A DNA stretch of 64,000 nucleotides from an uncultured Acidobacteriota bacterium (GCA_963713825.1 CAVQNG010000001.1:128001-192000); one strand, 5' to 3'. Counted from the first letter of the stretch, positions 2,368-18,579 are shown. The notes: a model not told the origin generated them from the letters alone. A program made the numbers and translations.

Positions 2368-3096
2368 TCAGACCAAGCTCCGGATGACAAGTGCGGCGTA
2401 ACTGTGAGTTCCCTCGATCAGGTGGGCGCTGAACCGCTGCGGTCCGCCATGGTCAGGGGGCGCATCCACGACACGCAGAGTCGGGTCCAACGCGAATTCG
2501 AAGGCGTCGAGGCCATAGGGTAATCCCTCCCCGATGGATTTCAACGCCGCTTCCTTCAGGCTCCAGAATTGGAGGAAGGTCCGCCGGCTCGCCAGGCCGC
2601 CTGGTCCTTCAACGACCTTGGCCTCGGCCACCGAAAAGAACTGCTGAGCGAGCTCTGTAGCCTCCAGGTTTCTCGATCGATCTTCGATGTCGACACCGAC
2701 CCCATGCGTCGACGACCATGCCCCGAGAAGACCGAAGCGGCAAGAGGAAAAACTAAACCAACATCTCGGCAAGTCGGACAGGTGCGGACGGCCGTTTTCT
2801 GTCTCGTCGAAAGCGATCTGCGACAGGGGCTGTGACGATTCGAGCGCACGAGCGCCGCAGAAACGGCGAAACGCCCGGCGTTGTTGGAACCGGGCCTTGT
2901 CACCTTGTGTGACGAAGCGATCGGCCCTGTGCGACTCGGAATCTGACAGGACTGATGCGCAACGCCTCGTTACCTCTGGATCGCGCGACACCGGCGCATA
3001 CAACACGTGAGCGGCGTGACGCGCCGGCGCCGGTGTCAGATCGCGAGAACAAGCGGCGAAATAGTCCTTGATCGGATCGCTACCGTTTCTGGTCAT
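2368..3096 (-). CDS. 4'-phosphopantetheinyl transferase, Sfp type
   Basis: NGRP, GVGVDIE, FFSVAE and FWSLKEAALKSIGEGL motifs; 242 aa; 49 bp downstream of the NRPS on the same strand. Confidence 0.9.
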   Translation of the reverse strand: MTRNGSDPIKDYFAACSRDLTPAPARHAAHVLYAPVSRDPEVTRRCASVLSDSESHRADRFVTQGDKARFQQRRAFRRFCGARALESSQPLSQIAFDETENGRPHLSDLPRCWFSFSSCRFGLLGAWSSTHGVGVDIEDRSRNLEATELAQQFFSVAEAKVVEGPGGLASRRTFLQFWSLKEAALKSIGEGLPYGLDAFEFALDPTLRVVDAPPDHGGPQRFSAHLIEGTHSYAALVIRSLV

Positions 3097-3145
3097 CTGA
3101 ATCGAAGAGCCTTTGGACTGGCTGAGAGACTAGGGGAGGCGAGAG

Positions 3146-6100
3146 TCAATCCTCTCCCACCGGCTCCGCGGGGCTGCCTTCGTATGTGGCAGTGGACAGG
3201 TGCATCTCCTTGAGGACCATGCTCAACGGTAAGAGCGTTGTCTCAGGCTCGATGACCGCACCGCCCATTACCGTGGCGCCGAAGCTGATGGTGCTGCCGT
3301 CCTGGATTTCGGTCAGCTTCACTTTCAGCATCATGTTCTCGAAGGTGTGAAACTGCAGCAAACCGTTGACCACGCAATCGTCGCCAAATCTCACCGCGTT
3401 CCAATCGTAGGCCTGCAGAGGCGAGGCAAGGATGGTCCGTTTGCCGATCTGACACCCCATCCATCGCAGAACAATATTCGAGAGTGTTGTCCCGGTGAGA
3501 ATCCGCAAGGGTCTTATACACCAGGCGAAGAAGCAATCCTGGGTGAAAAAGTAGGTGTAGTGCCGCCAGGACCAGAACGGTGTCGAGTGCGCAGAGCCCC
3601 ATTCACTGCCGACAAGGACCTTCTTGATCACGGCGCAGAACGCAATCAGGATGACCTCCGCGAGAATCAAAGCAATGAACGCGCTGAGGATCAGGGGCCC
3701 GCCCAACCGCAGCAGGCTGGTGTACAGAATCACATAGACGAGTATGTCGGCGATGCGCAGAATCCCGATGCTGAGAACATCATTCAGGAAGACCCGCGCC
3801 GCGAAGAGGGACAGACTAGGCAGTTTCTGGGCTCTGTTCTCCGCCTCGAAGTCCGCGCTCGCAAACCTGACAGGCGGGTTCCCCGCCACCGTGATCGGCT
3901 CGCCGAGCCGCGATCGCATCTGGCGCCGGAACTGTATGTCATTGCCCAGGGTAGAGGTGCCCAGTAGGAAGTTGGACGGGAATTGCCCGTACTCCGCGAC
4001 GCAGTTGTTACCGCTGAAGAAATTCTCGGGCATGTCGAGCTGGCGGAGCTTGATGTGCTCGGCACCATAGTCGAGCATGTTCGTGAAACAACCATTGGAC
4101 CAGAACACCTGCGAGTCGGCGCTGGCAAGCTCCGGGACGAGGTTGAACATGACGTCGCACTCCGAGGCGCCCAACCGCGGGAAGCGCATGCCAGCGAGTG
4201 CCCGCAGGTATTGCCCAGTGATGGTCCAGGTCCACTGTCTCTGGATCTGGTTCATCTTCTTCAGTCTGTACAAGAGGAGAGAGCCCTTGAGTCCACGCGA
4301 GGAATACAGGCCGGGGGAGGCGGGCGTGCAGCGAAGAAAGAGGCAAACCAGCACTGAGATGAGAACGATGGCGACCCAGGTGGTGATGAAGGCGTAGAGG
4401 CCCATTTGCCAGACGATCTCGTGCAGCGGCGTCACTTTGAAGTATTTGCTGGCGATTTCTGTTTCTTTGACGGGGATGAAGTTGACGGCAATCCAGCTGA
4501 CCACGGCGGTGGGGACTACCATGAGCCAGAAGTCCAGGAAGACATTCATCAGAATGTTGAGCGTCTCCATGACCCAGAACGGGTGCCTGACTTCGCAAGT
4601 CTCGGCGGTGCGCTGCAGTTGGGTGCAACGGCCGCTGAAGCGCGCCGGGGCACCCTCCCACATCTCCTCCGCACCCACATCGCTGAGGATGGGAGTCAAC
4701 GGAGCGATCCAGGTGCCGCGGCCTACCGTCACGTCGTTGGCGATGGCTGCCCGCATGCCGATCTTGCAGCCGCTCTCGAGGTGAACAGGGCCGATGTGCA
4801 GCTCCTGCCCCAACCACCTCGACATGTGCAGGTAGGCTCCGGTCTGGATCGCGACATCGTCCCCGATGGAGAGTAGGTCCAGCGGCCCATTGAACTCCAC
4901 GTCGTGCGCGCACTGCAGGTTGTCACCCACGGTCGTCCCGAGTCGCCGCAACACGTATGCCATAAGGGGGGCGCTGCGGAACATTGTGCGCAGGGGGAAG
5001 AGCACCGAACGTTCCAGCCGCCCGATACACCAGGTTCTCAAGTGCATCCTGCTCCACTTGGGGTAGACACCCGGCGTCACCTTGTTCTTGTACAGGTGAC
5101 CGCCCATGAAGAGCTTGATCCCCATGACCCAGAGCAGGCTGGCGAAGGGCAGGGCAAGGGCAATCAAGTACATCAAGAAGCCGACGCCAATGAACTCCCA
5201 GGGGCCGGCGGTCATGAAGAACTCGCCGATCTCCGAGAAGGCGATGAGCCCCAGGAAGCCGATCAAGGGGGGGGAGTACAACAAGGACAGGAAGAGGACC
5301 TGCAGAGTCGTGAAATATCCCGTGGAGAGCACCCTTGCCGCAGCTTCATCGCGCTCCGTGCTGTTCCGGTCGGTCTTCACCGCAGCCACGGGGGTCTGGG
5401 AGGCCTCCTGGAGTTGCCGTGGGCGACTGGCCACCTTCCGTGCCGTGTCGCAGTCGCTGAGCAGAGCCCGGACCGGGACCGCCCATCCTGCGGTTTGCAG
5501 GCGTTGCGCCAGTCGCGCAATGACGATCGAGTGCCCGCCATGGTCAGCGAACACATCATCCCATTCCAACGAGGTCTCGAACACGGCTCTGCAAATCGTC
5601 AGTACTTCCTCACAGCCCGGTTCCAAGTCCGGATCGGTGTCGGGAGGCGGGGCTATCCCTGAATCTGTGTCGAGCGCTCCCTCTGCTTCCGGCTTGGCGT
5701 TGGTCAGTAGATGAGACAGGTTGGGTAGGCTCCCCCGGTCGATCTTCCCGGACACCGGCTTCATGACGAATTGCTCCACCAGGAAGATCCTCGTCGGGAC
5801 CGCTGGCTCCGGAAGCTGTCTGGCCAGGGTCGCTGTCACCCGGGCAGCCCACTCCGCTGGCGCAGGAGCGACCACCGAGATATCAGCCTTGGAGATCGAC
5901 GGAGCACTTACGAAGGCAACCAGCTCCTCATTCTGATAGTCCAACACAGCTGCTTCGATTTCCCCGAACTGCGTTTGGAGTATGTCCTCAACCGCTTGCG
6001 TCTCGACTCGGTGCCCGCGCACCTTGAGCTGTGAGTCGACTCGGCCGAGGAAGTGCACTTGTTGCGTGCGGATATCTATCCTGCATTTATCCCCGGTGCG

Positions 6101-7399
6101 GTAGAGGCGGCCGAACCGAGGGTGCGTGATGAATTTCTGGGCCGTTTGCTCCGGCAAGTTGCGGTAACCGCGCGCTATGTGCACTCCACCAATGCAGAGC
6201 TCGCCGACTTGCCCGTGGGGCAGTGGGCGGAGCTCGTTGACCTCGAGGATGACGTAGGTGACGTTGGCGAAGGGCGAGCCTATGGTAACGGGCTCTCCCG
6301 CTCGCAAGCTCTGGCGGCTCGTGTCGGTGCTCGCCTCGGTGGGACCGTAGGTGTTGATGATCTGTCGTCTGCCACGCGTCCACGGCTCCACGAGCGCGGT
6401 GGGGAAGGCTTCGCCCGCCGGGACGATATAGCGGCACAGCGGGTACGGCAGATCCAGCTCCGGGTCTGGTGTGAGGGTGGTCAGCAGCACTGGGGGACAA
6501 AACAGCACAGTGACCTCGGCTTCACGGAGGACGGGGATGAGGTCCGGACCGGACCGGAACTGCTCCTTGGTCAGCATGACCACGGCACAACCCGACACCC
6601 AGGCGCTGTACATCTCGGAGATGCTGCCGTCGTAACCCAGCGACGAAGTGAGCGAGGTCGCATCCATTCCAGGAATGAGATCGAAGTAGTCGGCATAGGT
6701 CAGTGCCAGGTTCACATAGCCTGCGTGTGGGCACTCGACGCCCTTGGGCATCCCGGTCGTTCCACTGGTGTAGAAGATCGTTGCCAGGCGCTGGGCGGGG
6801 TCGTCCAACCATGACGGCGGCTTTCTTCGGGGGATCCTTTCGGGCAACGCCAGCAAGTCGAGCGTCGGCAGGTCGCGGAACTTGTCTTGCCCCCGCGTGA
6901 GAATGACCACCGGCTGTGCGTCGTCGAGCATGTGGGCTATCAGGGCTTCCGGCAAGGTGGTGTCGAGGAACATCACCGCACCGCCAGCCTTGAGAATGCC
7001 GAGGTGAGAGGCGACGATTTGCCAGTTGTCCTGCGACATGGCCACGGCCACGACCTGGTCCGGACCTGTAAGGAAGGGAGAAAGGGCCGCCGCGACGCTC
7101 TCAGCTCGGACGTCGAGCTCAGCGAAGGTCAGGGACTCCCCGGTGTGGGGAATCTGCAAAGCCGTGAGATTTGGGAACTTCCTGGCGGAGCGGCTGAAGA
7201 TCTCTGTAAGCCACCGGACGCCTTTCTGATGCGGAACGTTCAGGAGATGTCGGTCGCCAAAGACATCCGTCAAGCTGTATGGGCAAACGTCCGCCCGCCC
7301 GTCCGGCACTATCTCCGCCGCCCAGAGGTATCGCCTCCAGGCCACATACGTTAGTAAAAGGAAGACCAGGAAGACGGCTGTAAAGATAATTGCTGCCAA
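3146..7399 (-). CDS. Pls/PosA-type single-module NRPS-like synthetase (N-terminal TM helix, A, T, then membrane segments alternating with three hexapeptide-like C-terminal domains)
   Basis: A-domain cores YTSGTTGMPKG, NTYGPTE, LYRTGD, GRVDSQLKVRGHRVE, SGKIDR; T-domain GGHS; TM pairs alternating with domains ending WEGAPA / VAGNPP / YEGSPA; TTG start preceded by GAGGA. Confidence 0.88.
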   Translation of the reverse strand: MAAIIFTAVFLVFLLLTYVAWRRYLWAAEIVPDGRADVCPYSLTDVFGDRHLLNVPHQKGVRWLTEIFSRSARKFPNLTALQIPHTGESLTFAELDVRAESVAAALSPFLTGPDQVVAVAMSQDNWQIVASHLGILKAGGAVMFLDTTLPEALIAHMLDDAQPVVILTRGQDKFRDLPTLDLLALPERIPRRKPPSWLDDPAQRLATIFYTSGTTGMPKGVECPHAGYVNLALTYADYFDLIPGMDATSLTSSLGYDGSISEMYSAWVSGCAVVMLTKEQFRSGPDLIPVLREAEVTVLFCPPVLLTTLTPDPELDLPYPLCRYIVPAGEAFPTALVEPWTRGRRQIINTYGPTEASTDTSRQSLRAGEPVTIGSPFANVTYVILEVNELRPLPHGQVGELCIGGVHIARGYRNLPEQTAQKFITHPRFGRLYRTGDKCRIDIRTQQVHFLGRVDSQLKVRGHRVETQAVEDILQTQFGEIEAAVLDYQNEELVAFVSAPSISKADISVVAPAPAEWAARVTATLARQLPEPAVPTRIFLVEQFVMKPVSGKIDRGSLPNLSHLLTNAKPEAEGALDTDSGIAPPPDTDPDLEPGCEEVLTICRAVFETSLEWDDVFADHGGHSIVIARLAQRLQTAGWAVPVRALLSDCDTARKVASRPRQLQEASQTPVAAVKTDRNSTERDEAAARVLSTGYFTTLQVLFLSLLYSPPLIGFLGLIAFSEIGEFFMTAGPWEFIGVGFLMYLIALALPFASLLWVMGIKLFMGGHLYKNKVTPGVYPKWSRMHLRTWCIGRLERSVLFPLRTMFRSAPLMAYVLRRLGTTVGDNLQCAHDVEFNGPLDLLSIGDDVAIQTGAYLHMSRWLGQELHIGPVHLESGCKIGMRAAIANDVTVGRGTWIAPLTPILSDVGAEEMWEGAPARFSGRCTQLQRTAETCEVRHPFWVMETLNILMNVFLDFWLMVVPTAVVSWIAVNFIPVKETEIASKYFKVTPLHEIVWQMGLYAFITTWVAIVLISVLVCLFLRCTPASPGLYSSRGLKGSLLLYRLKKMNQIQRQWTWTITGQYLRALAGMRFPRLGASECDVMFNLVPELASADSQVFWSNGCFTNMLDYGAEHIKLRQLDMPENFFSGNNCVAEYGQFPSNFLLGTSTLGNDIQFRRQMRSRLGEPITVAGNPPVRFASADFEAENRAQKLPSLSLFAARVFLNDVLSIGILRIADILVYVILYTSLLRLGGPLILSAFIALILAEVILIAFCAVIKKVLVGSEWGSAHSTPFWSWRHYTYFFTQDCFFAWCIRPLRILTGTTLSNIVLRWMGCQIGKRTILASPLQAYDWNAVRFGDDCVVNGLLQFHTFENMMLKVKLTEIQDGSTISFGATVMGGAVIEPETTLLPLSMVLKEMHLSTATYEGSPAEPVGED

Positions 7400-7493
7400 G
7401 TGCTGTCCTCACATGGCCGTGAAGCCAAGACCCTTGGTAGCCTGGCTCCAACCGCTGAATCTGCCCCTCGTTGCTTTTGGCGACGGGGTGTGG

Positions 7494-8543
7494 TCAATCA
7501 AAGTACCGCTGGAGCGTTCCGTTGCGACGAATGTCCAAGGTTATGCAATGAAATCCACCACCCAGCATCTTAGAGTGCCGCAACTTCAGGCGGATTACAT
7601 CCAGACCGTGCTTCTCCAAGAGCTTGATCAGAGCTGTCTGGTCTTCATCGACTACGACCAGTTTCGGATTGATGCTCAAGACATTCATGTCGATCCAGTT
7701 GCTACCGATGCTCTTGGCTAGATAGTCGGCATCATATCTATCGGTGTTTTCCATCGGTGGACTGTAGATGACTTCCCATTGTCGAAAGATCTCAGGCAGG
7801 GTCTCGTCGTTGATCCGCCCCGGATTGCAGAGGACCAAGCCAGGGCGCAAAGCTGCAAAGGTCGAGTCGATATGGCTGCCATAATAGACATCTTTGAAGA
7901 AGTGAACCCGAAAAGCATCGCCCAGAATTGTCTGCAGCCATTGCCCACCCAGTTCATTGCCCGTGCCGCTGACCAGATAGAGCAAATCCTGGCCGAGACG
8001 CAGGACGTTCGCTGCATCGAAAGCTGGTTCATCGTTCCGTGGTGTGGGCTTGTTCAGATCCACCTCGAACAGCGAGTCCAACAGCATGGGTTTGGGGGCG
8101 CTGAACCACTTGGCTCCCGACCTTAGATAGTCGACCATCATCGAGCGATAGCTGAACGACTCCAAGGCGCGGCTGCGGATGACATTGGGCGTCTCGATAA
8201 TCTGATCGCCGATGACCAGAATGATGTCGCGGGGACAATAGTTGTAGTACCCCTCGGACTCCCAATGGATGGTGGAAAACTTGGCCTCGTGTGGCCATGT
8301 CTCTGGGCGTCTGACGGTGATGCCCAAACCCTCCAGGACGGCAGCAAAGGTATTCAGATCCTCTTCCGTCTCCTCGATGATCCGCTCTGGGAAAGGGCCC
8401 TGCGGAATCTCTTCCAGTGGACGGCCGGGAAATTCTGCCAGTTGGGTACTTCGGTCTGCTGTAGGAAATCTCGCACGCAGCGGATTGCCGACAATCACTT
8501 CTTCCAGTGGATCCCACTCGTTGCAACTCCAAACGACTGACAT
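7494..8543 (-). CDS. L-arginine-dependent amidinotransferase (StrB1/glycine amidinotransferase family)
   Basis: NEWDPLEEVIVG, YCPRD, FDAANVLR (Asp), HIDST (His), GGGFHCITLD (Cys); ATG at 8543 with AAGGA upstream; recalled StrB1 sequence looks colinear (not computed). Confidence 0.92.
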   Translation of the reverse strand: MSVVWSCNEWDPLEEVIVGNPLRARFPTADRSTQLAEFPGRPLEEIPQGPFPERIIEETEEDLNTFAAVLEGLGITVRRPETWPHEAKFSTIHWESEGYYNYCPRDIILVIGDQIIETPNVIRSRALESFSYRSMMVDYLRSGAKWFSAPKPMLLDSLFEVDLNKPTPRNDEPAFDAANVLRLGQDLLYLVSGTGNELGGQWLQTILGDAFRVHFFKDVYYGSHIDSTFAALRPGLVLCNPGRINDETLPEIFRQWEVIYSPPMENTDRYDADYLAKSIGSNWIDMNVLSINPKLVVVDEDQTALIKLLEKHGLDVIRLKLRHSKMLGGGFHCITLDIRRNGTLQRYFD

Positions 8544-8724
8544 ATGAATCAAATCCTTTTTTGTCCGGGGCTAATGAACGCGGCTCATCCGCCGAGTCCA
8601 CGAAGTGGATCCCCACCTTTGCCCCTGATTCCCTGCAGATCCGAGACGCGCCGACACAGCCAAGGCTCCTTCTTTGCCCCGAAGGACCTTGGCTGGCCGA
8701 ACGGATTACTTTAGCCCTTGCAGC

Positions 8725-9129
8725 CTATTCGACGGGTATTGATTCCCACAATGCGCTGTTTGGACAGACAACAAGCTCTCGATTCTCTTGGTCAATTTTC
8801 GAGGCCGGAGAACCCTCGTAGTTGTCCCAGAACAAACCCCACTCCTCAAAACTAGGCGCTACCACAATAAACAACAGGTCAGTTTCACCCATATTGGTGA
8901 CGGCGACCGGGTGATAGACCCAGGCCTCCAGGTTTTCTCCACCCTTCATTCCCTTTGCAGCCTCGAGCCACTTGGCAGCACCTGCTTCCACCTGCTTCTC
9001 AGTTGCATCATCGTCCAGCTCACAGTGGAAGACCTGCGAGACTCTGACCGCATAGGCCGGAGCGGCTGCAACCATCACCACGGCAAAGAGCATCGCGGAA
9101 ACAAGCATCAATCGAATAGCTTTGTTCAT
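8725..9129 (-). CDS. Secreted hypothetical protein with two Cys (possible disulfide)
   Basis: Clear signal peptide ending AYA; GAGGAG RBS; 134 aa. Confidence 0.7.
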   Translation of the reverse strand: MNKAIRLMLVSAMLFAVVMVAAAPAYAVRVSQVFHCELDDDATEKQVEAGAAKWLEAAKGMKGGENLEAWVYHPVAVTNMGETDLLFIVVAPSFEEWGLFWDNYEGSPASKIDQENRELVVCPNSALWESIPVE

Positions 9130-9469: not shown

Positions 9470-10705
9470 CTAGGTGGAGCTCGCTTCATGCTGACGGCGC
9501 AGAGGCTGGAACTTCAAATAGGTCAGGCTGCGCCACAACCATTCAGCTGGCCCGAACCTGAATCTGCCCAACCACCAGGTGCAGAACATCAGCAGTGTCA
9601 CAAAGAAAAGAACGGCATAGAAGGTGGTGGCGGCCGGCCCCAACAGGAAAAGCTGACCAAAACCCCATCCGTAGAACAGCGTGGTGAACATCACCGTGCT
9701 GAACAGATAAACCGTCAGGGCCATTCTCCCCAGGTTCTCGAAGGGCCGAAGAGCGGTTTGCCAGCCCGGCCTTTGCGCCAGTAAGACGATCCCCGCGCCA
9801 TAACCCAGCGCCAGCGCCGTCGAGCCATAGGCAAAGAGCATGTCGCCAAGAAACCGGACCCCGCTCGATGCCGTGGTCTCGGTAAAGACTGCGTAGCCAA
9901 ATTTCTGGATCAGCCACCACTCAGCGAGTGCGCTGGCTACCCCGATGCCAATACCCCAGCCAAACACTCTGCGGATCAACGGGAGATGGGGCGCGACGTC
10001 GTAGAGAATCCTGGTCCGGCCCACGAACAGGCCAAGCAGGAACATCGAGAAGATTGCAAGACTCGATTCGGGGTCGTGCAGGTTTGACCAGATCCGTGGC
10101 GGAATGGCGAAAGCATTTTCCCGGAAGACATCCATAGGGGAACCCAGGAAAGGATGATCCACCCTCAGTTCGGCCAACGGAAGCGAATCTTCCCACTGGG
10201 CATCCAGGTCATCGCTGCTTTCTGTGTGAACCAGATTACCCACCGGGAAAGCTGCGAGGAGAAGACAGGCCAGAATCAGGAGCGTACGGGGCCGGACATT
10301 GCGGAACGCCACGAGTATCAGCCCCAGCATGGCGTATTCCATCAAGATGTCGCCGTCGAAAAACAGGGCGTGCACCATCCCAAAGACGAACAGGATGGTC
10401 AGTCGTCTGAAGTAGAACCACAAAGACCCGCCCTCGTGTGACATCGCCTTGGCCAACTGCAGTGCGAAGCCCAAACCAAACAACAGGGAGAACAGGCGCC
10501 AGGATTTGGTTTCGAAGAACGCATGCATCCATGTACTGAAGGCGCGATCGAGAGTGCCAGTCCACTCGGGAGCATCAGCCCCGAAGTTGTACATATTGAC
10601 GAGCAACACCCCGAAAAGAGCAAATCCACGGACTGCGTCAACGGAACGGATGCGAGCCCCCGGATCGGTTGGGCCGACTCGTTCTGAACCTGGCATGCGA
10701 GCCAT
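9470..10705 (-). CDS. DUF418/YeiB family membrane protein
   Basis: RIRSVDAVRGFALFGVLLVN, FSLLFG, GDILMEYA, GRMALTVY, FRFGPAEWLWRSLTY. Confidence 0.88.
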   Translation of the reverse strand: MARMPGSERVGPTDPGARIRSVDAVRGFALFGVLLVNMYNFGADAPEWTGTLDRAFSTWMHAFFETKSWRLFSLLFGLGFALQLAKAMSHEGGSLWFYFRRLTILFVFGMVHALFFDGDILMEYAMLGLILVAFRNVRPRTLLILACLLLAAFPVGNLVHTESSDDLDAQWEDSLPLAELRVDHPFLGSPMDVFRENAFAIPPRIWSNLHDPESSLAIFSMFLLGLFVGRTRILYDVAPHLPLIRRVFGWGIGIGVASALAEWWLIQKFGYAVFTETTASSGVRFLGDMLFAYGSTALALGYGAGIVLLAQRPGWQTALRPFENLGRMALTVYLFSTVMFTTLFYGWGFGQLFLLGPAATTFYAVLFFVTLLMFCTWWLGRFRFGPAEWLWRSLTYLKFQPLRRQHEASST

Positions 10706-10789
10706 TCTCTGCTTCTATGACCGGCAGATCAATCCTGGCAGGCGGGAAGACCAACACTCCAGGTGGATCAGTTTTTGAGGCTCGACCAC

Positions 10790-11156
10790 CGGCCGGGTAG
10801 ACCGCGAATTGATCCAGAGCTCTTGAGACTCATCCGTCGGATGGCCACTACAAACCCACTTTGGGGAGCGCCGCGGATCCACGGCGAGTTGCTCAAGCTT
10901 GGGATCGAAGTCTCTGAGCGCACTGTCTCTCGCTGGATGCCGAAGCGACCGAAGCCACCGTCCCAGACCTGGCGAGCCTTTCTGGAGAACCACCTCAAGG
11001 ACTTGGTCTCGATCGATTTCTTCACCGTTGCCTCGGCGACCTTCCAGATCCTCTTCGTCTTCGTCGTCCTCACCCACGACCGGCGGCGCGTGGCAGGCCT
11101 CCAGATCACCGAAGTGCTCATCGCTCCCCGGTCGCCTTGGCAGAATCCGTACGTCG
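10790..11156 (+). mobile_element. Internally deleted, truncated integrase-core (IS481/IS3-like) transposase remnant
   Basis: PGRPRI..LIRRMA..NPLWGAPRIHGELLKLG..VSERTV, QTWRAFL.NH, DFFTV, APRSPWQNPYV; second Asp region and catalytic Glu missing. Confidence 0.85.
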
Positions 11157-11200
11157 CGCGGCGTCAAATGGAAAACCGTACTCCTTGTTATGATGCCGCC

Positions 11201-11857
11201 ATGAAAAAACTCGTCGTGTTAGTAAGTTTGTTCGGAGCCATTAGTCTTCCTCTCGCGGCCCAGGACTCTGAGCCAACCCAGGTTCCTGAACCGACGCAGA
11301 CTCCTGATGTGATCACGGTCCCTGAGCAGACCGATGCTCCAGAACCTGCCCAAGCTCCTGGGCCCTTGAGCCCCCTGGAGAAGGCTCTCATTCAGAGTGC
11401 CTACGATGGGAAACTGGCTGAGGTCCAGGTACTGGTTGCCAAAGGCGCCTCTGTAGATTTAGCCGATAAGAAGAAACGCACGCCGCTTATTCTGGCTGCA
11501 TATAACGGTCACACATCTGTTGTCGAATTTCTCTACGGCAAGGGCGCGGATATCAACGCGAAAGACAGCGGGGGCCAAACCGCGCTGATGCACACGTGCA
11601 AACGTTCCTTTAACGAGACAGCAGCGTTCCTGCTGAAGAACGGCGCGGAGGTAAATGTCCAGAGTAGGAAAAAGGGTGTCACCGCCTTGATGATCACGGC
11701 GGTGGCGGGCAATGTGGAATTGGTGCGCATGCTGCTTGATCGCGGGGCGGATGCAAATCTCACTGATGTCTTTGGTAACACTGCCAAGATTCTGGCCGAG
11801 AAAAAGGGGAATTCGGCCGTGGTTGATTTGCTGTCTGAGCCGCCAGCAAGTGGTTGA
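11201..11857 (+). CDS. Secreted ankyrin-repeat protein with Pro/Glu/Thr-rich linker
   Basis: MKKLVVLV..LAA signal peptide; EPTQVPEPTQTP linker; about 4-5 ankyrin repeats (TPLILAA.NGH, TALM..A..GNVELVRMLLDRGAD). Confidence 0.9.
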   Translation: MKKLVVLVSLFGAISLPLAAQDSEPTQVPEPTQTPDVITVPEQTDAPEPAQAPGPLSPLEKALIQSAYDGKLAEVQVLVAKGASVDLADKKKRTPLILAAYNGHTSVVEFLYGKGADINAKDSGGQTALMHTCKRSFNETAAFLLKNGAEVNVQSRKKGVTALMITAVAGNVELVRMLLDRGADANLTDVFGNTAKILAEKKGNSAVVDLLSEPPASG

Positions 11858-12327: not shown

Positions 12328-14454
12328 ATGACCGTGCGAAACGATGCGTGCTGGCAGTCCCTCCTCTGGAAAATTTCGGGTGCCTTGTTGATCACGCTGC
12401 TTTGCAGCCCCGTCTATGCTCAGCCGGCGAATGACGACTGTGAGAGTGCCGCCGTCCTGCCAGGCTCAGCTCCATTCCCCCCCTATACAGTCCGTGTTGA
12501 CGCTACCAATGCCACACTCGACCCCGCCGATCCCCTGCTCAGCTGCAACGCCGGCGGGGATGATGACGGCAACCAAACCGTTTGGTATGTCTACACACCA
12601 GATGCCAGCGGATGGGTCGACTTCAATACCTTTGGCAGCACGACAGCTGGGGGCGGTGAACTGGACACTGCGCACGGCGCATTTGCCGGAACCTGCGATG
12701 CCCTAACTCAAGTCGCCTGCGTAGACCAGGGTCTCAATGACAGCCTGGATGTCGAAGTGGAAGCAGGGACCACCTACTACATCAAGGTTGGTCAATTTGC
12801 TGGTGGCAACGATGCCGGAACTGTCGTGATGAATGTTGAAGAGGGTGTCCCGCCGATTGAGCCGGCTAGACTGGTTATCGAATCCTCGAACAATGGCACC
12901 TCCGCCCCGGTGAGAGATATTGTTGGTGGGTCTGCACCTATTTCAATTTCCGCGGCTCAAGCGGAGAACATGATCGAAAAACTTGTCGAGATTCCGAATT
13001 ACGTGCTTGCTGACGGCGAGTCTTCGAAACCCGATGCGGGACCTGTCGGGTCACAGGTCGCAGGCAATGGTGAAGTCAGATGGAACGGTCCGGCAGATCT
13101 TCTGCAAGTTTTCGAAGGCGGAGAAAACGATGACAACGCCTTTACCTTTGGTTTTCTCATAGCTCCGCCCGACACGGTAGGCGACGTCGGTAGAGACCAT
13201 TACGTACAGATGTACAATCTGCTGACGGAGATCTTCGACAAGGAGGGCAATAGCGTTCTCGGACCGTTTCCGACCTCCACCTTCTTTACCGGAATGTCTG
13301 GAAATTGCGCAATCAGTGACGATGGAGACCCGATCGTCCTCTATGACGAGGAAACGGACCGTTGGCTGGTGTCACAGTTCCTGGCTTCCTTCCAGGATGG
13401 CCTCTGCATAGCCATTTCGACCAGCGGCGACCCGACCGGCAGTTACAACCAGTATGAGTTTGACTTCACCGGTATCGGGTTTCCCGATTATCCGAAGTTT
13501 GGCTTCGCAACCGGTGCCATCAACGTGATGGTCAACCTGTTCTCCCCCTTCCAGGGCTCTGCGCTGGGCGCGATCGACAAGTCCGAGATGTTGGCTGGAG
13601 AACCGGCAACGATGGTGCTCTTCACCGGAGGCGAAGACGCTAATTATGCATTTGGCTGGGTTCCTGGTGACAACGATGGTCCGGTTTTCGACAACACGCT
13701 GCCGACTTTCTTCACCACTCTCGGAGGTTCCGGCGATACCATCTTCGTCGCGGAAATTACGCCTGACTGGGCCACTCCGGAGAATACTGGGCTCGGCTTT
13801 GACTTTATCCCGGTTACGCCATGGGACAGCACGCTCTGTGGTGCTTCGCGCGGTGCTTGTATTGATCAGCCGGGTTCGGGTACGGAGAACATTCCCTTCC
13901 TGGAAGGTATTACCGACCGCCTGATGCACCGCGGGCAGACCCGTGATTTCGGTAGGCGCAAGAAAGCCATCCTCAGCCATACGGTGGATGTGGACGGCAC
14001 GGGCAAAGCGGGTGTGCGCTGGTATGAGCTCTGGAACCACAAGGACCGAGGCTGGACGCTGAAGAAGGAAAACACCTTCTCACCCGACGGTGACCACCGC
14101 TGGATGGGTAGTATTGCGATGACCGCCTCTGGTAGTACTTGCCTGGGATATAGCATCTCAAGTCAAACTACCTACCCGAGTATTGGCATTACCGGCCGCA
14201 AAGGCACGTCGAACCACATGAATATTTTTGAATTGGTGGCTTTCGATGGCAACGTTGCTGGGAACGTGCAGCGGTCAACGGCGAGATGGGGTGATTACAG
14301 CGCCATGTCCATCGACCCGGTAGACGACAGCTGCTGGTACACCCAGGAACATGCCAAGCCAGGTTCCTTTATTGACGAGATATTCGGCTGGGGTACCCAG
14401 GTGATGCAATTCTCAGTCAGCGGTCGCGGTCGCGGTCAAGGACGCGGACGATGA
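12328..14454 (+). CDS. Large secreted protein: N-terminal PANDDC (PPC-like) module and an uncharacterised C-terminal domain, probably a beta-propeller
   Basis: Signal peptide ending VYA; PANDDC..VWYVYT..GTTYYIKVG; PPDT.GDVG..HYVQ, GDPIVLYD..DRW, FPDYPK, RWMGSIAM, RWGDYSAMSIDP. Confidence 0.75.
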   Translation: MTVRNDACWQSLLWKISGALLITLLCSPVYAQPANDDCESAAVLPGSAPFPPYTVRVDATNATLDPADPLLSCNAGGDDDGNQTVWYVYTPDASGWVDFNTFGSTTAGGGELDTAHGAFAGTCDALTQVACVDQGLNDSLDVEVEAGTTYYIKVGQFAGGNDAGTVVMNVEEGVPPIEPARLVIESSNNGTSAPVRDIVGGSAPISISAAQAENMIEKLVEIPNYVLADGESSKPDAGPVGSQVAGNGEVRWNGPADLLQVFEGGENDDNAFTFGFLIAPPDTVGDVGRDHYVQMYNLLTEIFDKEGNSVLGPFPTSTFFTGMSGNCAISDDGDPIVLYDEETDRWLVSQFLASFQDGLCIAISTSGDPTGSYNQYEFDFTGIGFPDYPKFGFATGAINVMVNLFSPFQGSALGAIDKSEMLAGEPATMVLFTGGEDANYAFGWVPGDNDGPVFDNTLPTFFTTLGGSGDTIFVAEITPDWATPENTGLGFDFIPVTPWDSTLCGASRGACIDQPGSGTENIPFLEGITDRLMHRGQTRDFGRRKKAILSHTVDVDGTGKAGVRWYELWNHKDRGWTLKKENTFSPDGDHRWMGSIAMTASGSTCLGYSISSQTTYPSIGITGRKGTSNHMNIFELVAFDGNVAGNVQRSTARWGDYSAMSIDPVDDSCWYTQEHAKPGSFIDEIFGWGTQVMQFSVSGRGRGQGRGR

Positions 14455-14569: not shown

Positions 14570-14995
14570 GTGCATGGTTCAAGGCGGGCCCGTCTGCGTC
14601 AATGCTGTAAGGACTGCAACCCCATTCCGTTCCTGTTGGCGGCGATCTGCCTGGTGGGTTGTCTGCACACCGAGATGCCAGTGAATCCCCCTGATACCGG
14701 TATCAGAGGGACTGTGCTTTGGGGCCCGGTCGAGCCCGGACCGTCCAGGCTTGGACAAAGCGACGAAGCGCCGCTTCGAGCTACCTTTCTGGTACAGAGT
14801 GCCGGCCGCGAGGTGGCGCGATTCAAGTCCGACGCCAAGGGTAGCTTCGAGGTCTTGCTGCCTGCAGGCGACTACGTGATCGTCCCGGACCAATCAACGC
14901 CCATGCCCGCCCCACAGAACCAGAAGAAGTCAGTAACCGTGCCGGCGGACGGCTTTGCCGTCGTCACGCTCAGGTTCGACACCGGCATGAGGTGA
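14570..14995 (+). CDS. Putative lipoprotein with a carboxypeptidase-regulatory-like beta-sandwich domain
   Basis: Lipobox-like LVGC after a hydrophobic stretch; TGIRGTV..GP, SDAKGSFEVLLPAGDYVI, C-terminal FDTGMR. Confidence 0.65.
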   Translation: MHGSRRARLRQCCKDCNPIPFLLAAICLVGCLHTEMPVNPPDTGIRGTVLWGPVEPGPSRLGQSDEAPLRATFLVQSAGREVARFKSDAKGSFEVLLPAGDYVIVPDQSTPMPAPQNQKKSVTVPADGFAVVTLRFDTGMR

Positions 14996-15088: not shown

Positions 15089-15149
15089 GATCCACCCGAT
15101 GTGCGAGTTTCGGGGGATGCCTCATGTCTGGTCCCATCGACTGCGGACT

Positions 15150-16214
15150 CTATGGTACGAACGACACAGCCGTCGGTGGATACCAGATTCGGCGCTCACG
15201 CTTACGCTGTTCATCGATTGCAGCGACCGAAGTGGAATAGGCTGTGCCCGAGACAAGCTCGGGCAGCCGAGCCTGCGTCCCGTCGATCATCGGGCTCTTC
15301 CAAGCTGCACCGTCTCGAAGTCTGTTGAGAGTGACCTCGTACATGATCTGCACCGACGAGAGACTGCGCGACGGTTGCCACGTCAAGACGTATCTACCGC
15401 GGTCGATCTGCCGAATCTCCAAGCCGGTCGGGCGCGACGGCGGAAACCACTCGGGCTCGCCCAGATAGTACGAGTAGCGACTCTCCGAGCCCCACGTATC
15501 TTCGGCGTCAACGAAAGGCACTGCGAACTGGCCCTTGACGAGGACGTGCGCAGCGTTCGTCAGATACTCCCTTGGAAAGATCCAACCGCCTGGCAAGCAG
15601 TCGGGATACTGCGGGTTTTGCCGCAGCCAGTCGAGGGTTGGTAACGCCCCGTCCGGCGTGCGCAGAATGACGCCACCCTTGAAGTAGTTGGCGTCGGCGA
15701 CTCGCCAAGTGCCGTCGAGCGACACCTCCGTTACGACGTGAACCGATGGACTGTAGGCCGATGGCAAGAAGGTGATTCTGGCATCCCATCCCGCGGCAAG
15801 ACAGAGCTGCCGGACGATCTCAGCTGTATGCCAGCAGCGTGCGTCATGCAGCTCCAGCAACTCGTGCGCTGCCGTGACAATGGTCTGCTGATCGGTTTCG
15901 AAAGGGCACTCCAGGGGATTGTGCCACGTGGCATCTTGCACGAACCGAACGATCGCTTCCAGCATTGCCTGCTTGCTGGAGCGCGTCTGCAACACGTTCG
16001 ACAGCACCTCGCGTAGGTACTCCCTCTTGGAAGTGCCCTCGAGACGGGCACGCACGAATTCAAGCTTCGTCTGGTTGTATCCGTTTGTCTCAGCCGTGAC
16101 CTGAGTAGCCGGCAGAATGAACCACGGTATCCCGTCTCTGACCCAGTCGCGCTTGAACCGCCACCCGAACTCGTACCCGCATTGTCCAGCGCTATCACTT
16201 GGCACTGTGCGCAC
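15150..16214 (-). CDS. Transglutaminase-like (Cys-His-Asp) protein with a C-terminal fibronectin type III domain
   Basis: DARCWHTA (Cys), LCLAAGWDAR, HVVTEVSLDGTWRVAD (His, Asp); PPSRPTGL..LTW..YEV..LVSGTAYSTSVAA FN3 signature; no signal peptide. Confidence 0.75.
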   Translation of the reverse strand: MRTVPSDSAGQCGYEFGWRFKRDWVRDGIPWFILPATQVTAETNGYNQTKLEFVRARLEGTSKREYLREVLSNVLQTRSSKQAMLEAIVRFVQDATWHNPLECPFETDQQTIVTAAHELLELHDARCWHTAEIVRQLCLAAGWDARITFLPSAYSPSVHVVTEVSLDGTWRVADANYFKGGVILRTPDGALPTLDWLRQNPQYPDCLPGGWIFPREYLTNAAHVLVKGQFAVPFVDAEDTWGSESRYSYYLGEPEWFPPSRPTGLEIRQIDRGRYVLTWQPSRSLSSVQIMYEVTLNRLRDGAAWKSPMIDGTQARLPELVSGTAYSTSVAAIDEQRKRERRIWYPPTAVSFVP

Positions 16215-16466: not shown

Positions 16467-18053
16467 TTAAGTGATGTTCTCCGCATACCGATAGCTCGGC
16501 ACGAGGTTCCTGATCTCGTTCATGTCCTCCTCGGCGATCGGATTCACTAACTGCTCGAAGCCCATGTTGACGCCCGGTGAGAGCCGGCTGATCGCTTCGT
16601 CCACGCTTGGAAGCTCCGATGCGCTCTTCACGAGGTCGGTCAGCTCCGTGAAGACTTCAAGTGCATATTGGAACATCTTTTGTCTTCGCGCCCTTCTGAA
16701 GGGCGCCGGAAGACTGCCCGCGCCCCACTTGAAGCCGCGAGTCCAATCCGACACAACTCCCATCCATCTCTCCATGAGACCGCTGGACACGGCATGGAGC
16801 CACGCGATCTTCGGATCCGCAAACTCGTAGTCGGGATTGAGGTAGTCGCCCTTGAGCTGTCCCTGAGCTTCAAGTTCTTCGTAGATCGGGGTCCCGGTAT
16901 AGACCGAGAGGCGACTCAGCAACTCGAAGATGAGATAGGACGCGTGGCGCTTGAGGAACGCGATGTTGGCCTCGATATCCTCCAGTGTGGTTTCGGGATC
17001 GAACATGATGAACCCAGCGTTGATCTCGATCCCATGCCGATGAAGCACCTGGATAGCACGTTCGTTGATCTCTGGTGTGGCGCCTTTTTGGAACCGGCGA
17101 AGAACAGCAGCAGAGGCGGACTCGATTCCTATAAGGGCGCTCTTGAGGCCCACCTCACGCAACTGATGGATGACCTCATCATTCACCTGTGCTGCAGTAA
17201 GCAAAGCAATGAGAGTCAGGTCCTGTAGGCCGCTGCCTTTAATCGCGGCGCAGAGTTGACGAATGCGTTCCGATCCCTCCTGTCCAACTGGAATAAAGCT
17301 GTCATCGGCGAAATCGAACCCATCGCATCCTTCTCGTTGGTGGAGCTCGACCATTTCAGCGACGATGTTGTCGGCGCTTCTGGCTCTCCACCCGCAACCA
17401 TAGAACGCTTGGACGCTGCAAAACGAGCAGCGATACTGGCACCCGCGACTGGAGACCATGGTGGCATAGCGAATGCCGCCATACTCCGGGGGCATGAACT
17501 GCCGCTTGGGAAAGGGTAGGGTATCCAGGTCCTGGATGAGATCGGCGCGAGGCCCGACCACGACCTCATCTTGGTGCCGGTACGTGACACCGTGCAGGCC
17601 CGCGAGCTCTTTGCCGCCGAGGACTCGAGTGGCCAGATCATGGAGGGGCTCCTCTCCTTCGCCCCGGGCGACGGAGTCGAAGCAGTCGAAATCTCGCAGC
17701 AACTTGTCGTGAGCGACGGTTGGGAAGTGGCCACCGATACAGATGTGCGTCGATGGGCTGTCGCGCCTGATGGCTCGGGCAACTTCCACGACCTCTGGAA
17801 AGCCGAGTTGGGAGGTGGCGCTGATCCCGACGAGCCGATAGGCGCTTTCTGACACTCGGCGAGCGACGTCGGCCGTCGTCGACTCTGTGCCGAGTACCAT
17901 GTCACTGACGTCGGCGCGGATGCCTCGTGATTCCAAATAGGAAGACAGGTAACCGATACCGAGATGATCGTAAGTCTTGTCCTCGGCGCGAACACCATCG
18001 AATGGCCTTACGAGCAAGACGGCCTGTCCATTGCCAGCCTGGTCGATTGGCAC
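16467..18053 (-). CDS. Cobalamin-dependent (class B) radical SAM enzyme, probable methyltransferase
   Basis: HLGIGYLSSYL, VGISA, IGGHFPT, GEGE (B12-binding domain); SRGCQYRCSFC CxxxCxxC; DDSF, IGIES, GFIMFDP; GTG start at 18053 after GGAGG preferred to the TTG at 18125. Confidence 0.92.
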   Translation of the reverse strand: MPIDQAGNGQAVLLVRPFDGVRAEDKTYDHLGIGYLSSYLESRGIRADVSDMVLGTESTTADVARRVSESAYRLVGISATSQLGFPEVVEVARAIRRDSPSTHICIGGHFPTVAHDKLLRDFDCFDSVARGEGEEPLHDLATRVLGGKELAGLHGVTYRHQDEVVVGPRADLIQDLDTLPFPKRQFMPPEYGGIRYATMVSSRGCQYRCSFCSVQAFYGCGWRARSADNIVAEMVELHQREGCDGFDFADDSFIPVGQEGSERIRQLCAAIKGSGLQDLTLIALLTAAQVNDEVIHQLREVGLKSALIGIESASAAVLRRFQKGATPEINERAIQVLHRHGIEINAGFIMFDPETTLEDIEANIAFLKRHASYLIFELLSRLSVYTGTPIYEELEAQGQLKGDYLNPDYEFADPKIAWLHAVSSGLMERWMGVVSDWTRGFKWGAGSLPAPFRRARRQKMFQYALEVFTELTDLVKSASELPSVDEAISRLSPGVNMGFEQLVNPIAEEDMNEIRNLVPSYRYAENIT

Positions 18054-18095
18054 CGATCCTCCAGGGGTCCTCCGCTGTGACTGCACTGTGGCTCG

Positions 18096-18125
18096 ATTCT
18101 TTAGGAGACATGGCGTCCACGTCAA
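18096..18125 (-). promoter_or_regulatory. Candidate promoter of the radical SAM operon
   Basis: TTGACG-N18-AAGAAT on the minus strand. Confidence 0.35.
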
Positions 18126-18503: not shown

Positions 18504-18579
18504 TGGAGCCGACGAGCGGACTCGAACCGCTGACCTGCTCATTACGAGTGAGCTGCTCTACCAGCTGAGCTACGTCGGC
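18504..18579 (-). tRNA. tRNA-Thr(CGT)
   Basis: GCCGACGTAGCTCAGCTGGTAGAGCAGCTCACTCGTAATGAGCAGGTCAGCGGTTCGAGTCCGCTCGTCGGCTCCA; 76 nt cloverleaf with encoded CCA. Confidence 0.97.

Follow-up and report, generated by a model that had tools for sequence, protein, structure and literature searches.

A conserved cassette pairing an amidinotransferase with a Pls-type membrane synthetase in uncultured bacteria, a candidate pathway to a guanidino-bearing cationic oligomer

Genes and domain anatomy of the locus

A 64,000-nucleotide stretch of the genome of an uncultured Acidobacteriota bacterium (GCA_963713825.1 CAVQNG010000001.1:128001-192000), hereafter the window, carries on its minus strand a compact group of genes that includes an amidinotransferase and a membrane synthetase related to the epsilon-poly-L-lysine synthetase Pls. 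Three co-oriented open reading frames (ORFs) occupy positions 2368-3096, 3146-7399 and 7494-8552 with gaps of 49 and 94 bp, and both the frames and their coordinates matched the initial annotation, made earlier from the sequence alone. They encode an Sfp-type 4'-phosphopantetheinyl transferase (PPTase; 242 aa, 2368..3096), a single-module membrane synthetase (1417 aa, 3146..7399) and a StrB1-type L-arginine-dependent amidinotransferase (349 aa, 7494..8543). The synthetase starts at the TTG at 7399, which is preceded by GAGGA, and its relatives align from residue 1. For the amidinotransferase, the ATG at 8543 is the most likely start, because AAGGA lies 11 nt upstream and the relatives are 349 aa long. 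The conserved system in the window reaches to 10705 and includes two genes upstream of the amidinotransferase, both on the minus strand: one for a small secreted protein of 134 aa, here called o134 (8725..9129), and one for a YeiB-like polytopic membrane protein of 411 aa (DUF418; 9470..10705).

A phmmer search of the PDB placed the amidinotransferase closest to StrB1, the L-arginine:inosamine-phosphate amidinotransferase (1bwd; 2.4e-114, 385 bits, residues 6-350 against 3-346), followed by HsvA, AGAT and SxtG at 1e-61 to 1e-66. The similarity to these solved enzymes is full-length, and the window protein and StrB1 belong to the same length class. By alignment, it retains the residues opposite StrB1 Asp108, Asp179, His227 and Cys332, which we take to be catalytic, and D106, D176, H224 and C333 (349-aa numbering) are invariant in 13 amidinotransferases drawn from both clades described below. 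The intact Asp/His/Cys triad that had been read from the sequence earlier was thereby borne out, in keeping with the Cys-His-Asp set of StrB1/AGAT-type enzymes. The predicted activity, judged from sequence, is transfer of the amidino group of arginine to an amine acceptor; the protein has no signal peptide. Members of the family carry the NCBI name 'inosamine-phosphate amidinotransferase 1'; the cassette itself holds no cyclitol genes. The protein collection contained 5586 relatives of the amidinotransferase at E<=1e-30.

The PPTase has the properties of an Sfp-type enzyme, which are two lobes, a length near 230-240 aa and an ACPS-superfamily domain (Pfam ACPS, 6.9e-15, residues 132-209), next to a weak AASDHPPT_N match (46-108); its earlier naming as an Sfp PPTase was upheld. 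The best NCBIfam match is HetI-type (63.8 bits, under the cut-off of that model), and the sequence shows GVDIE and FWSLKEAALK, presumably motifs of the PPTase family.

In the synthetase, Pfam (E<=0.01) recognized only AMP-binding (residues 68-412), PP-binding (599-657), Hexapep and LbH_EIF2B, and neither a condensation nor a thioesterase domain was detected at that threshold. The adenylation (A) domain covers approximately residues 68-558 (5726..7198, minus strand; AMP-binding, 9.9e-61) and the carrier (T) domain, with the serine motif GGHS, residues 599-657 (5429..5605, minus strand; PP-binding, 1.3e-06), forming the single A-T module of Pls/PosA-type synthetases. The Pls-type C-terminal region (residues 699-1417; 3149..5305, minus strand) was described by hydropathy, hhalign, structure modelling and Foldseek. 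Hydropathy indicated one N-terminal membrane helix and three membrane-helix pairs at about 699-766, 949-1031 and 1203-1267, and the soluble segments C1, C2 and C3 proved to be mutually homologous (hhalign probability 99.5, 97.1 and 95.2%), an arrangement of three homologous soluble domains in tandem, surrounded by some six membrane helices. An AlphaFold model spanning residues 680-1417 and based on a 39-row alignment (predicted local distance difference test, pLDDT, 82.5; predicted template modelling score, pTM, 0.86), consists of three units, each composed of a helix pair and a left-handed beta-helix. Domains, repeats and model all agree with the order A-T-(membrane helix/hexapeptide)x3 that had been assigned to this 1417-aa protein, an assignment that had not mentioned the extra N-terminal membrane helix.

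Each of the soluble domains has the fold of hexapeptide acyl-coenzyme A (CoA) acetyltransferases. Foldseek matched the modelled beta-helices to maltose/galactoside O-acetyltransferases (E 1e-5, target-normalized template modelling score up to 0.62) and further to serine acetyltransferases and sugar N-acyltransferases. In hexapeptide acyltransferases, which are trimeric, the active sites lie between subunits and the donors are CoA thioesters. The model suggests that the three fused, diverged beta-helix domains may form a pseudo-trimer that accepts a phosphopantetheine thioester instead of acyl-CoA. The classical enzymes differ in being CoA-dependent homotrimers of separate chains, whereas here the three copies are fused, diverged and membrane-embedded, and their putative donor is a carrier-bound thioester. 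If the model holds, Pls-type enzymes in general may be readable as fused pseudo-trimers of hexapeptide acyltransferases. Three residues of C3, Q1349, H1351 and E1354, do not vary in any of the 39 rows of the alignment, outgroup rows among them; His1351 is put forward as a candidate for catalysis.

The Pls architecture proposed in the initial annotation holds for the A-T module and the three-repeat plan; the curated family model does not extend to this protein. TIGR02353 aligns over residues 742-1411 with 163.7 bits, below its curated cut-off of 423.1, and we therefore filed the synthetase as a divergent relative and not as a member of the curated family. The same model gave 168.5 bits for the family member P0126, 135.4 for P0132, a member of a sister clade, and 328-380 for six outgroup Pls-like proteins. 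When the C-terminal 738 residues served as query in an exhaustive HMMER search, 994 proteins were found at E<=0.001, ranked as a tight family set of at least 50% identity, then P0132 (34%) and then full-length Pls-like proteins (25-28%); judged by these sequence distances, the synthetase family is a deep, tight and discrete clade of the Pls superfamily. PDB searches by sequence found no relatives of the C-terminal region beyond a weak hexapeptide-transferase match. Likeness to Pls itself lies in the architecture, the TIGR02353 alignment and the A domain (Pls 7wew, 7.8e-37), whereas the low family score, a different pocket code, the extra N-terminal helix and an obligate amidinotransferase partner set the window synthetase apart from Pls and PosA. 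Cluster look-ups of ten outgroup Pls-like representatives gave generic names only. One such outgroup protein, P0221 (1309 aa), comes from the transcriptome of the dinoflagellate Yihiella yeosuensis, and Pls-like synthetases may occur in, or with, eukaryotic plankton.

Linkage of amidinotransferase and synthetase across genomes

A scan of one genome per species matched 188 stretches. Relatives of the synthetase are encoded in 157 of them, and 76 loci, which match over most of its length, were kept. Their synthetases are 64-88% identical to that of the window. All but one of these loci (75) are from labelled metagenome-assembled genomes, the other being from an isolate, the delta proteobacterium NaphS2. 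Host labels include Alpha- and Gammaproteobacteria, Desulfobacterota, Verrucomicrobiota, Acidobacteriota, Gemmatimonadales, Methylomirabilis, Nitrospira and Flavobacteriaceae, and mis-binning cannot explain this phylum spread, because several loci sit on contigs of 0.7-5.5 Mb.

The amidinotransferase was detected by tblastn in 64 of the 76 loci. When only loci with at least 1200 bp of upstream sequence were considered, it was present in 60/65, on the same strand and within 600 bp in 55 of them, and absent from L035, L039, L047, L055 and L074. L039 and L066 are on one contig, and the amidinotransferase of L066 is ~12 kb from L039; this alphaproteobacterial contig carries two paralogous synthetases ~13 kb apart and a single amidinotransferase, which adjoins one copy. 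Five non-adjacent pairs have 1.2-2.7 kb between the two genes, with an intervening S41 peptidase in L007 and a sulfatase in L041. A metagenome scan with the sister protein added 60 loci, 47 from the sister clade and 13 from the main family. Given enough flank, the amidinotransferase was found in 11/11 of the main-family metagenome loci and, directly upstream of the synthetase, in 31/31 of the sister loci, where the synthetase is 42-45% and the amidinotransferase 66-69% identical to the window protein.

Taken together, 102 of the 107 sufficiently flanked loci retain both genes, and they represent two clades and eight phylum-level labels. The initial annotation had named in advance an observation that would count against it, namely an amidinotransferase not conserved beside homologous synthetases, and when this test was run the outcome was not refuting. 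Identity to the window of the amidinotransferase and of the synthetase are correlated (Spearman 0.86, n=89; 0.66, n=63, within the main family), both values being inflated by relatedness. Clearly, the amidinotransferase and the synthetase travel together, and the conserved pair with its tracking divergence supports the earlier proposal that the genes belong to one pathway whose chemistry is not that of known Pls enzymes.

The cassette was found to be unevenly distributed near the window's own lineage. Synthetase orthologues occur in 3/5 genomes of the same genus, 1/19 other genomes of the family and 0/16 of the order; the trait is therefore patchy and accessory, in line with the accessory region to which the genes had been assigned. 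Three genomes of the window's genus (G008, G009 and G010) encode synthetases of 75-82% identity, with the YeiB-like gene located downstream on the other strand, and this divergence and gene order suggest separate acquisitions or rearrangement. We conclude that the cassette is genuine, conserved and widely transferred, and that it is a variant of Pls-type systems.

Partner genes other than the amidinotransferase vary between the clades. Among main-family loci with a flank of 2300 bp or more, 32/54 have a PPTase homologue downstream of the synthetase; none was found in the 47 sister loci. The o134 protein consists of a signal peptide and a ~105-aa dimeric alpha/beta-barrel (DABB) domain; it had no Pfam or NCBIfam match, and its model (pLDDT 91.4) gave Foldseek matches of the DABB fold at E ~1e-4 (muconolactone isomerases, olivetolic acid cyclase). 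In the alignment of its homologues C36 is invariant and C122 is found in at least 90% of rows. These homologues are present in 16/76 genome loci and, directly upstream of the amidinotransferase, in 26/27 sister loci with enough flank. The YeiB-like protein (Pfam DUF418, 1.6e-36; NCBIfam YeiB, 100 bits, under the cut-off) has homologues in 9/76 genome loci and, downstream, in 33/33 sister loci with enough flank, and adjoins the cassette in G009 and G029.

Soil-clade loci carry a cytoplasmic S41 peptidase (34/76 genome loci) and a TraX-like membrane protein of ~286 aa (41/76); among the TraX-like members tested, 16/16 match Pfam TraX and 7 also match Acyl_transf_3. At L007:5767-10872 a TraX/acyltransferase-3-like membrane domain is fused to the C-terminus of the synthetase, and the same reading frame of ~1700 aa, holding the TraX-like protein, occurs in L019, L023, L043, L049, L061 and L075; in other loci the protein has a gene of its own. 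Six of these seven loci are labelled Acidobacteriota and L061 is labelled Xanthobacteraceae. A TraX-like gene was not found in the window or its genome with the queries used. Homology between the YeiB-like (DUF418) and TraX-like proteins was considered and not supported (hhalign probability 0.3%); both touch HGSNAT_cat weakly. A POT-family transporter was rejected as part of the system, having been found in 1/136 loci; in the Methylococcaceae locus L042 a POT-family peptide:H+ symporter (3052-4392) lies directly upstream of SbnA.

Diaminopropionate genes and the adenylation pocket

De novo clustering of the ORFs in these loci revealed two further conserved upstream genes, homologues of SbnA and SbnB, the enzyme pair of diaminopropionate synthesis. 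Of the 57 main-family loci that have 3600 bp or more of upstream sequence, 44 carry both genes, in two types (36 type 1 and 8 type 2). The cassette form SbnA-SbnB-amidinotransferase-synthetase-(TraX-like)-PPTase is exemplified by L012 and L062. Judged against the NCBIfam equivalog cut-offs (SbnA 349.95 bits, SbnB 326.9 bits), one example of each type clears both models, with 377.9 and 383.5 bits for type 1 and 389.9 and 375.6 bits for type 2; the best PDB matches of type 1 are SbnA, CmnB, SbnB and CmnK. The sister clade has a third type, encoded downstream on the opposite strand, with an SbnB-like gene in 14/24 loci and an SbnA-like gene in 12/20; for the sister example L119, SbnB scored 330.4 bits, just over the cut-off, and the SbnA-like protein 268.9 bits, under it. 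Judged by gene content, SbnA and SbnB beside most relatives point to L-2,3-diaminopropionate (Dap).

The nine pocket residues of the A domain, numbered on the assumption that GrsA-based positions define the specificity code, read DGSVVATTD both by motif and by alignment. By motif, 54 of 65 complete readings give this code and 11 depart from it at one to three positions, with D235 and D331 in all 65; 12 further synthetase sequences were incomplete and are outside this count. By alignment, the code appears in 26/28 family proteins and in both sister proteins, and 8/8 outgroup Pls-like proteins read DSETYGGVT. Read as in other A domains, the kept Asp235 suggests a free alpha-amine on the substrate and the kept Asp331 a cationic side chain of some length. 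The main texts of PMC12283262 and PMC4668381, as far as available, do not give the pocket residues of Dap-activating domains, which their supplementary tables may hold.

By its published description (PMC4668381), the nearest characterised system in gene content is the poly-Dap synthetase (PDAPs) of Streptomyces albulus PD-1 with NjxA/NjxB. PDAPs follows an A-T-membrane-helix/C1-C3 plan, its Dap is made by homologues of cysteine synthase and ornithine cyclodeaminase (NjxA/NjxB), a serine/ornithine route is reported, and the Dap genes are unlinked to pdaps (PMC4668381). Compared by this description, the two systems share a single A-T module without condensation or thioesterase domains, membrane helices around three tandem soluble domains and, in the relatives of the window, a similar Dap supply. 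They differ in that the PDAPs system, as described there, has no amidinotransferase and has its Dap genes at a distance, whereas in the cassette the amidinotransferase is the most constant partner; moreover, the C-terminal domain of the window synthetase is deeply divergent and the window's genome has no SbnAB over the cut-offs.

Candidate pathway, competing explanations and genomic surroundings

We tentatively read the cassette as one horizontally mobile pathway in which an amidino-Dap is probably made and then activated and oligomerised by the synthetase, a reading that we hold with somewhat less than even confidence. The amidino group of L-arginine would pass through the active-site cysteine of the StrB1-type enzyme to an amine group on a small diamino acid. 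An amino acid is the most plausible acceptor, given the context of an amino-acid-activating synthetase with Dap genes, and the likeliest amine would be the beta-amine of Dap, yielding 2-amino-3-guanidinopropionate. The A domain, with Asp235 and Asp331, would activate this guanidino amino acid and load it onto the carrier domain primed by the PPTase. Acting together as an internal pseudo-trimer of the hexapeptide acyltransferase kind, with the phosphopantetheine arm in the role of CoA, the three beta-helix domains would then transfer the aminoacyl group onto a diffusible acceptor with a free amine, time after time as in Pls. The product, most likely a guanidino-bearing cationic oligomer, would be a short polycation that exits by way of the six-helix membrane part or next to it. 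The YeiB-like and secreted DABB proteins, and in soil relatives the TraX-like protein and S41 peptidase, may cap, trim or export it or serve self-protection; a peptide product would fit the conserved cytoplasmic S41 peptidase. What the sequences show directly are the genes and their families, the domain anatomy, the conserved linkage and the Dap genes of relatives; the acceptor amine, the monomer, the iteration and these accessory roles are the parts of the scheme that we infer.

Parallels exist for the combination of such an amidinotransferase with peptide assembly. The homoarginine-forming amidinotransferases AmtA of phaseolotoxin and 'McyK' likewise make a guanidino amino acid that feeds a peptide-assembly enzyme (PMC4887976, PMC12283262), and a StrB1-type enzyme is said to supply homoarginine to a nonribosomal peptide synthetase (NRPS; PMC12283262); in the available text of both papers these partners are multimodular NRPSs or ligases, and no Pls-type partner is described. 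[quoted passage not shown] The earlier statement that no characterised Pls-family enzyme is coupled to an amidinotransferase stood: a full-text literature search, whose coverage excludes most subscription journals, found no description of such a coupling. TAN-1057 presumably contains a cyclised guanidino-Dap unit and is a possible lead; a literature search found no paper on its biosynthesis.

Several observations weigh against this pathway. If the beta-amine is amidinated, chain growth must use the alpha-amine, and no characterised Pls-type enzyme is known to grow chains in this way. The C-terminal region is only 21-24% identical to eight aligned outgroup Pls-like proteins and, as its TIGR02353 score (163.7 bits against 423.1) also indicates, is far from characterised members, so that iterative polymerisation is not to be assumed. 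Neither SbnA nor SbnB was found over the cut-offs in the window or its genome (5.42 Mb in 38 contigs, 96.4% complete), where the best match to the SbnA model (261 bits) scores higher as a cystathionine beta-synthase and the best match to the SbnB model reaches 165.9 bits. Four cassette-bearing relatives from the same genus or family keep the synthetase, the PPTase and the YeiB-like gene, with the amidinotransferase on the same contig in three; none of the four (completeness 87, 100, 70 and 98%) has SbnA over the cut-off, and the same holds for four of five further genomes in which SbnAB does not adjoin the locus. Overall, SbnAB is absent from 13/57 main-family loci and the SbnB-like gene from 10/24 sister loci. 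An intact cassette is thus kept without SbnAB, even though the pocket code does not change, and Dap made by SbnAB would not be obligatory: where the known Dap route is missing, Dap would come from elsewhere or the monomer would be another amidinated amino acid. Candidates for another Dap route are a cystathionine beta-synthase-like protein at G000:C3:626289 and an ornithine-cyclodeaminase-like protein at C3:877106. The assignment of the pathway is drawn from sequence comparison, and amidino-Dap is a candidate monomer.

One competing explanation reverses the order of events: plain L-Dap would be polymerised through its beta-amine and the free alpha-amines or the chain end amidinated afterwards. 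We consider this improbable, even though the gene content would then equal that of the poly-Dap system (PMC4668381) plus one enzyme, with SbnAB in 44/57 loci. The amidinotransferase aligns end to end with StrB1 with short indels only, and a bulky aminocyclitol phosphate is the acceptor of StrB1; D235 and D331 could also bind both amines of a diamino acid. Such late guanidinylation is harder to reconcile with an amidinotransferase that lacks a signal peptide, whereas Pls-type products are extracellular, with a D331 at the pocket bottom that would suit a side chain longer than that of Dap (by analogy with ornithine and arginine codes), and with genomes that keep the cassette without SbnAB. The last point would be explained if the monomer were not derived from Dap at all, a common diamino acid being amidinated (for example lysine to homoarginine) and Dap serving as starter, acceptor or side branch. 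In both clades the amidinotransferase and synthetase form the constant core and SbnAB can be missing, as it is in five related genomes, the window's included, that keep the cassette. Small residues (G, S, V, V, A, T, T) line the pocket, with an Asp at its end, and homoarginine is a reported product of a StrB1-type enzyme (PMC12283262). Still, a peripheral Dap hardly explains why three divergent SbnAB pairs were kept or recruited in different arrangements, and no conserved second A domain or ligase for a hetero-unit was found, which leaves this explanation with a small share of the probability.

The synthetase could also act once and not iteratively, passing a single cationic (guanidino) amino acid to an envelope acceptor such as a lipid, glycan or protein in a Dlt-like surface decoration assisted by the membrane partner and the small periplasmic protein. 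Its partners recall DltB, DltD and DltX: the YeiB-like protein (33/33) and the secreted small protein (26/27) of sister loci, and the TraX-like membrane protein of 41/76 loci, fused to the synthetase in L007. Every labelled host belongs to a diderm phylum, and 64-88% identity across phyla is unusually high for a secondary-metabolite gene. However, the threefold C1-C3 plan is so far known solely from polymerases (PMC4668381), the cytoplasmic S41 peptidase of 34/76 loci better fits a peptide product, and the patchy distribution in the window's family is unlike that of a core envelope function; on balance we regard surface decoration as unlikely. That the genes are chance neighbours in unrelated pathways is scarcely credible and refuted as far as synteny can refute it: 5/65 loci lack the amidinotransferase, but the pair is kept in 102/107 loci of two clades and eight phylum-level labels, and one of the exceptions, L039, lies ~12 kb from the amidinotransferase on the contig of L066.

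Under the preferred reading, in which amidino-Dap is made before activation, the product might be the first natural poly(guanidino amino acid), with 2-amino-3-guanidinopropionate units joined by a Pls-type enzyme through their alpha-amines, because the side-chain amine is blocked; this more specific outcome is doubtful. If true, joining through alpha-amines would be a new reaction mode for Pls-type enzymes, and the spread of the cassette by horizontal transfer among soil and sediment bacteria of at least eight phyla would mean a widespread, unnoticed microbial polycation, with a possible role as antimicrobial, adhesin, cell-penetrating agent or nitrogen-rich polymer. Such a guanidino polycation of natural origin would carry a permanent charge and bind membranes and nucleic acids as arginine does. 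For comparison, PMC9606270 describes the industrial use of epsilon-polylysine in preserving food and ongoing work on bacterial polycationic isopeptides as cell-penetrating carriers. The pathway has apparently never been studied, it occurs in bacteria of many phyla, and its product is probably an undescribed guanidino-bearing cationic peptide or polymer; since the cassette is common in uncultured soil and sediment bacteria, this product may be an abundant, unseen environmental metabolite. The cassette is small (3-7 genes) and has its own PPTase, and it is therefore directly testable by heterologous expression.

Around the cassette, housekeeping genes on one side and a tRNA-Thr gene (18504-18579) on the other bracket the region. 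Direct repeats that would mark island boundaries were looked for in its flanks and not found, and promoter-like and terminator-like sites were not more frequent than in shuffled sequence. In metatranscriptome library X21, stretches of the synthetase, amidinotransferase and upstream genes were matched at 90-99% by contigs that come from relatives and may reflect DNA carry-over. Directly beside the cassette, an ORF on the plus strand (10763-11857, 364 aa) combines N-terminal transposase-type HTH_32/HTH_21 domains with ankyrin repeats, an unusual combination. Three further plus-strand ORFs between the cassette and the tRNA-Thr gene, at 12328-14454, 14570-14995 and 15099-15644 (708, 141 and 181 aa), have no Pfam match, and a search of the 76 related loci found no homologue for any of them. 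The same non-core stretch encodes, on the minus strand, a protein with a transglutaminase core and fibronectin-III (15150-16214) and a B12-binding radical SAM enzyme (16467-18125).

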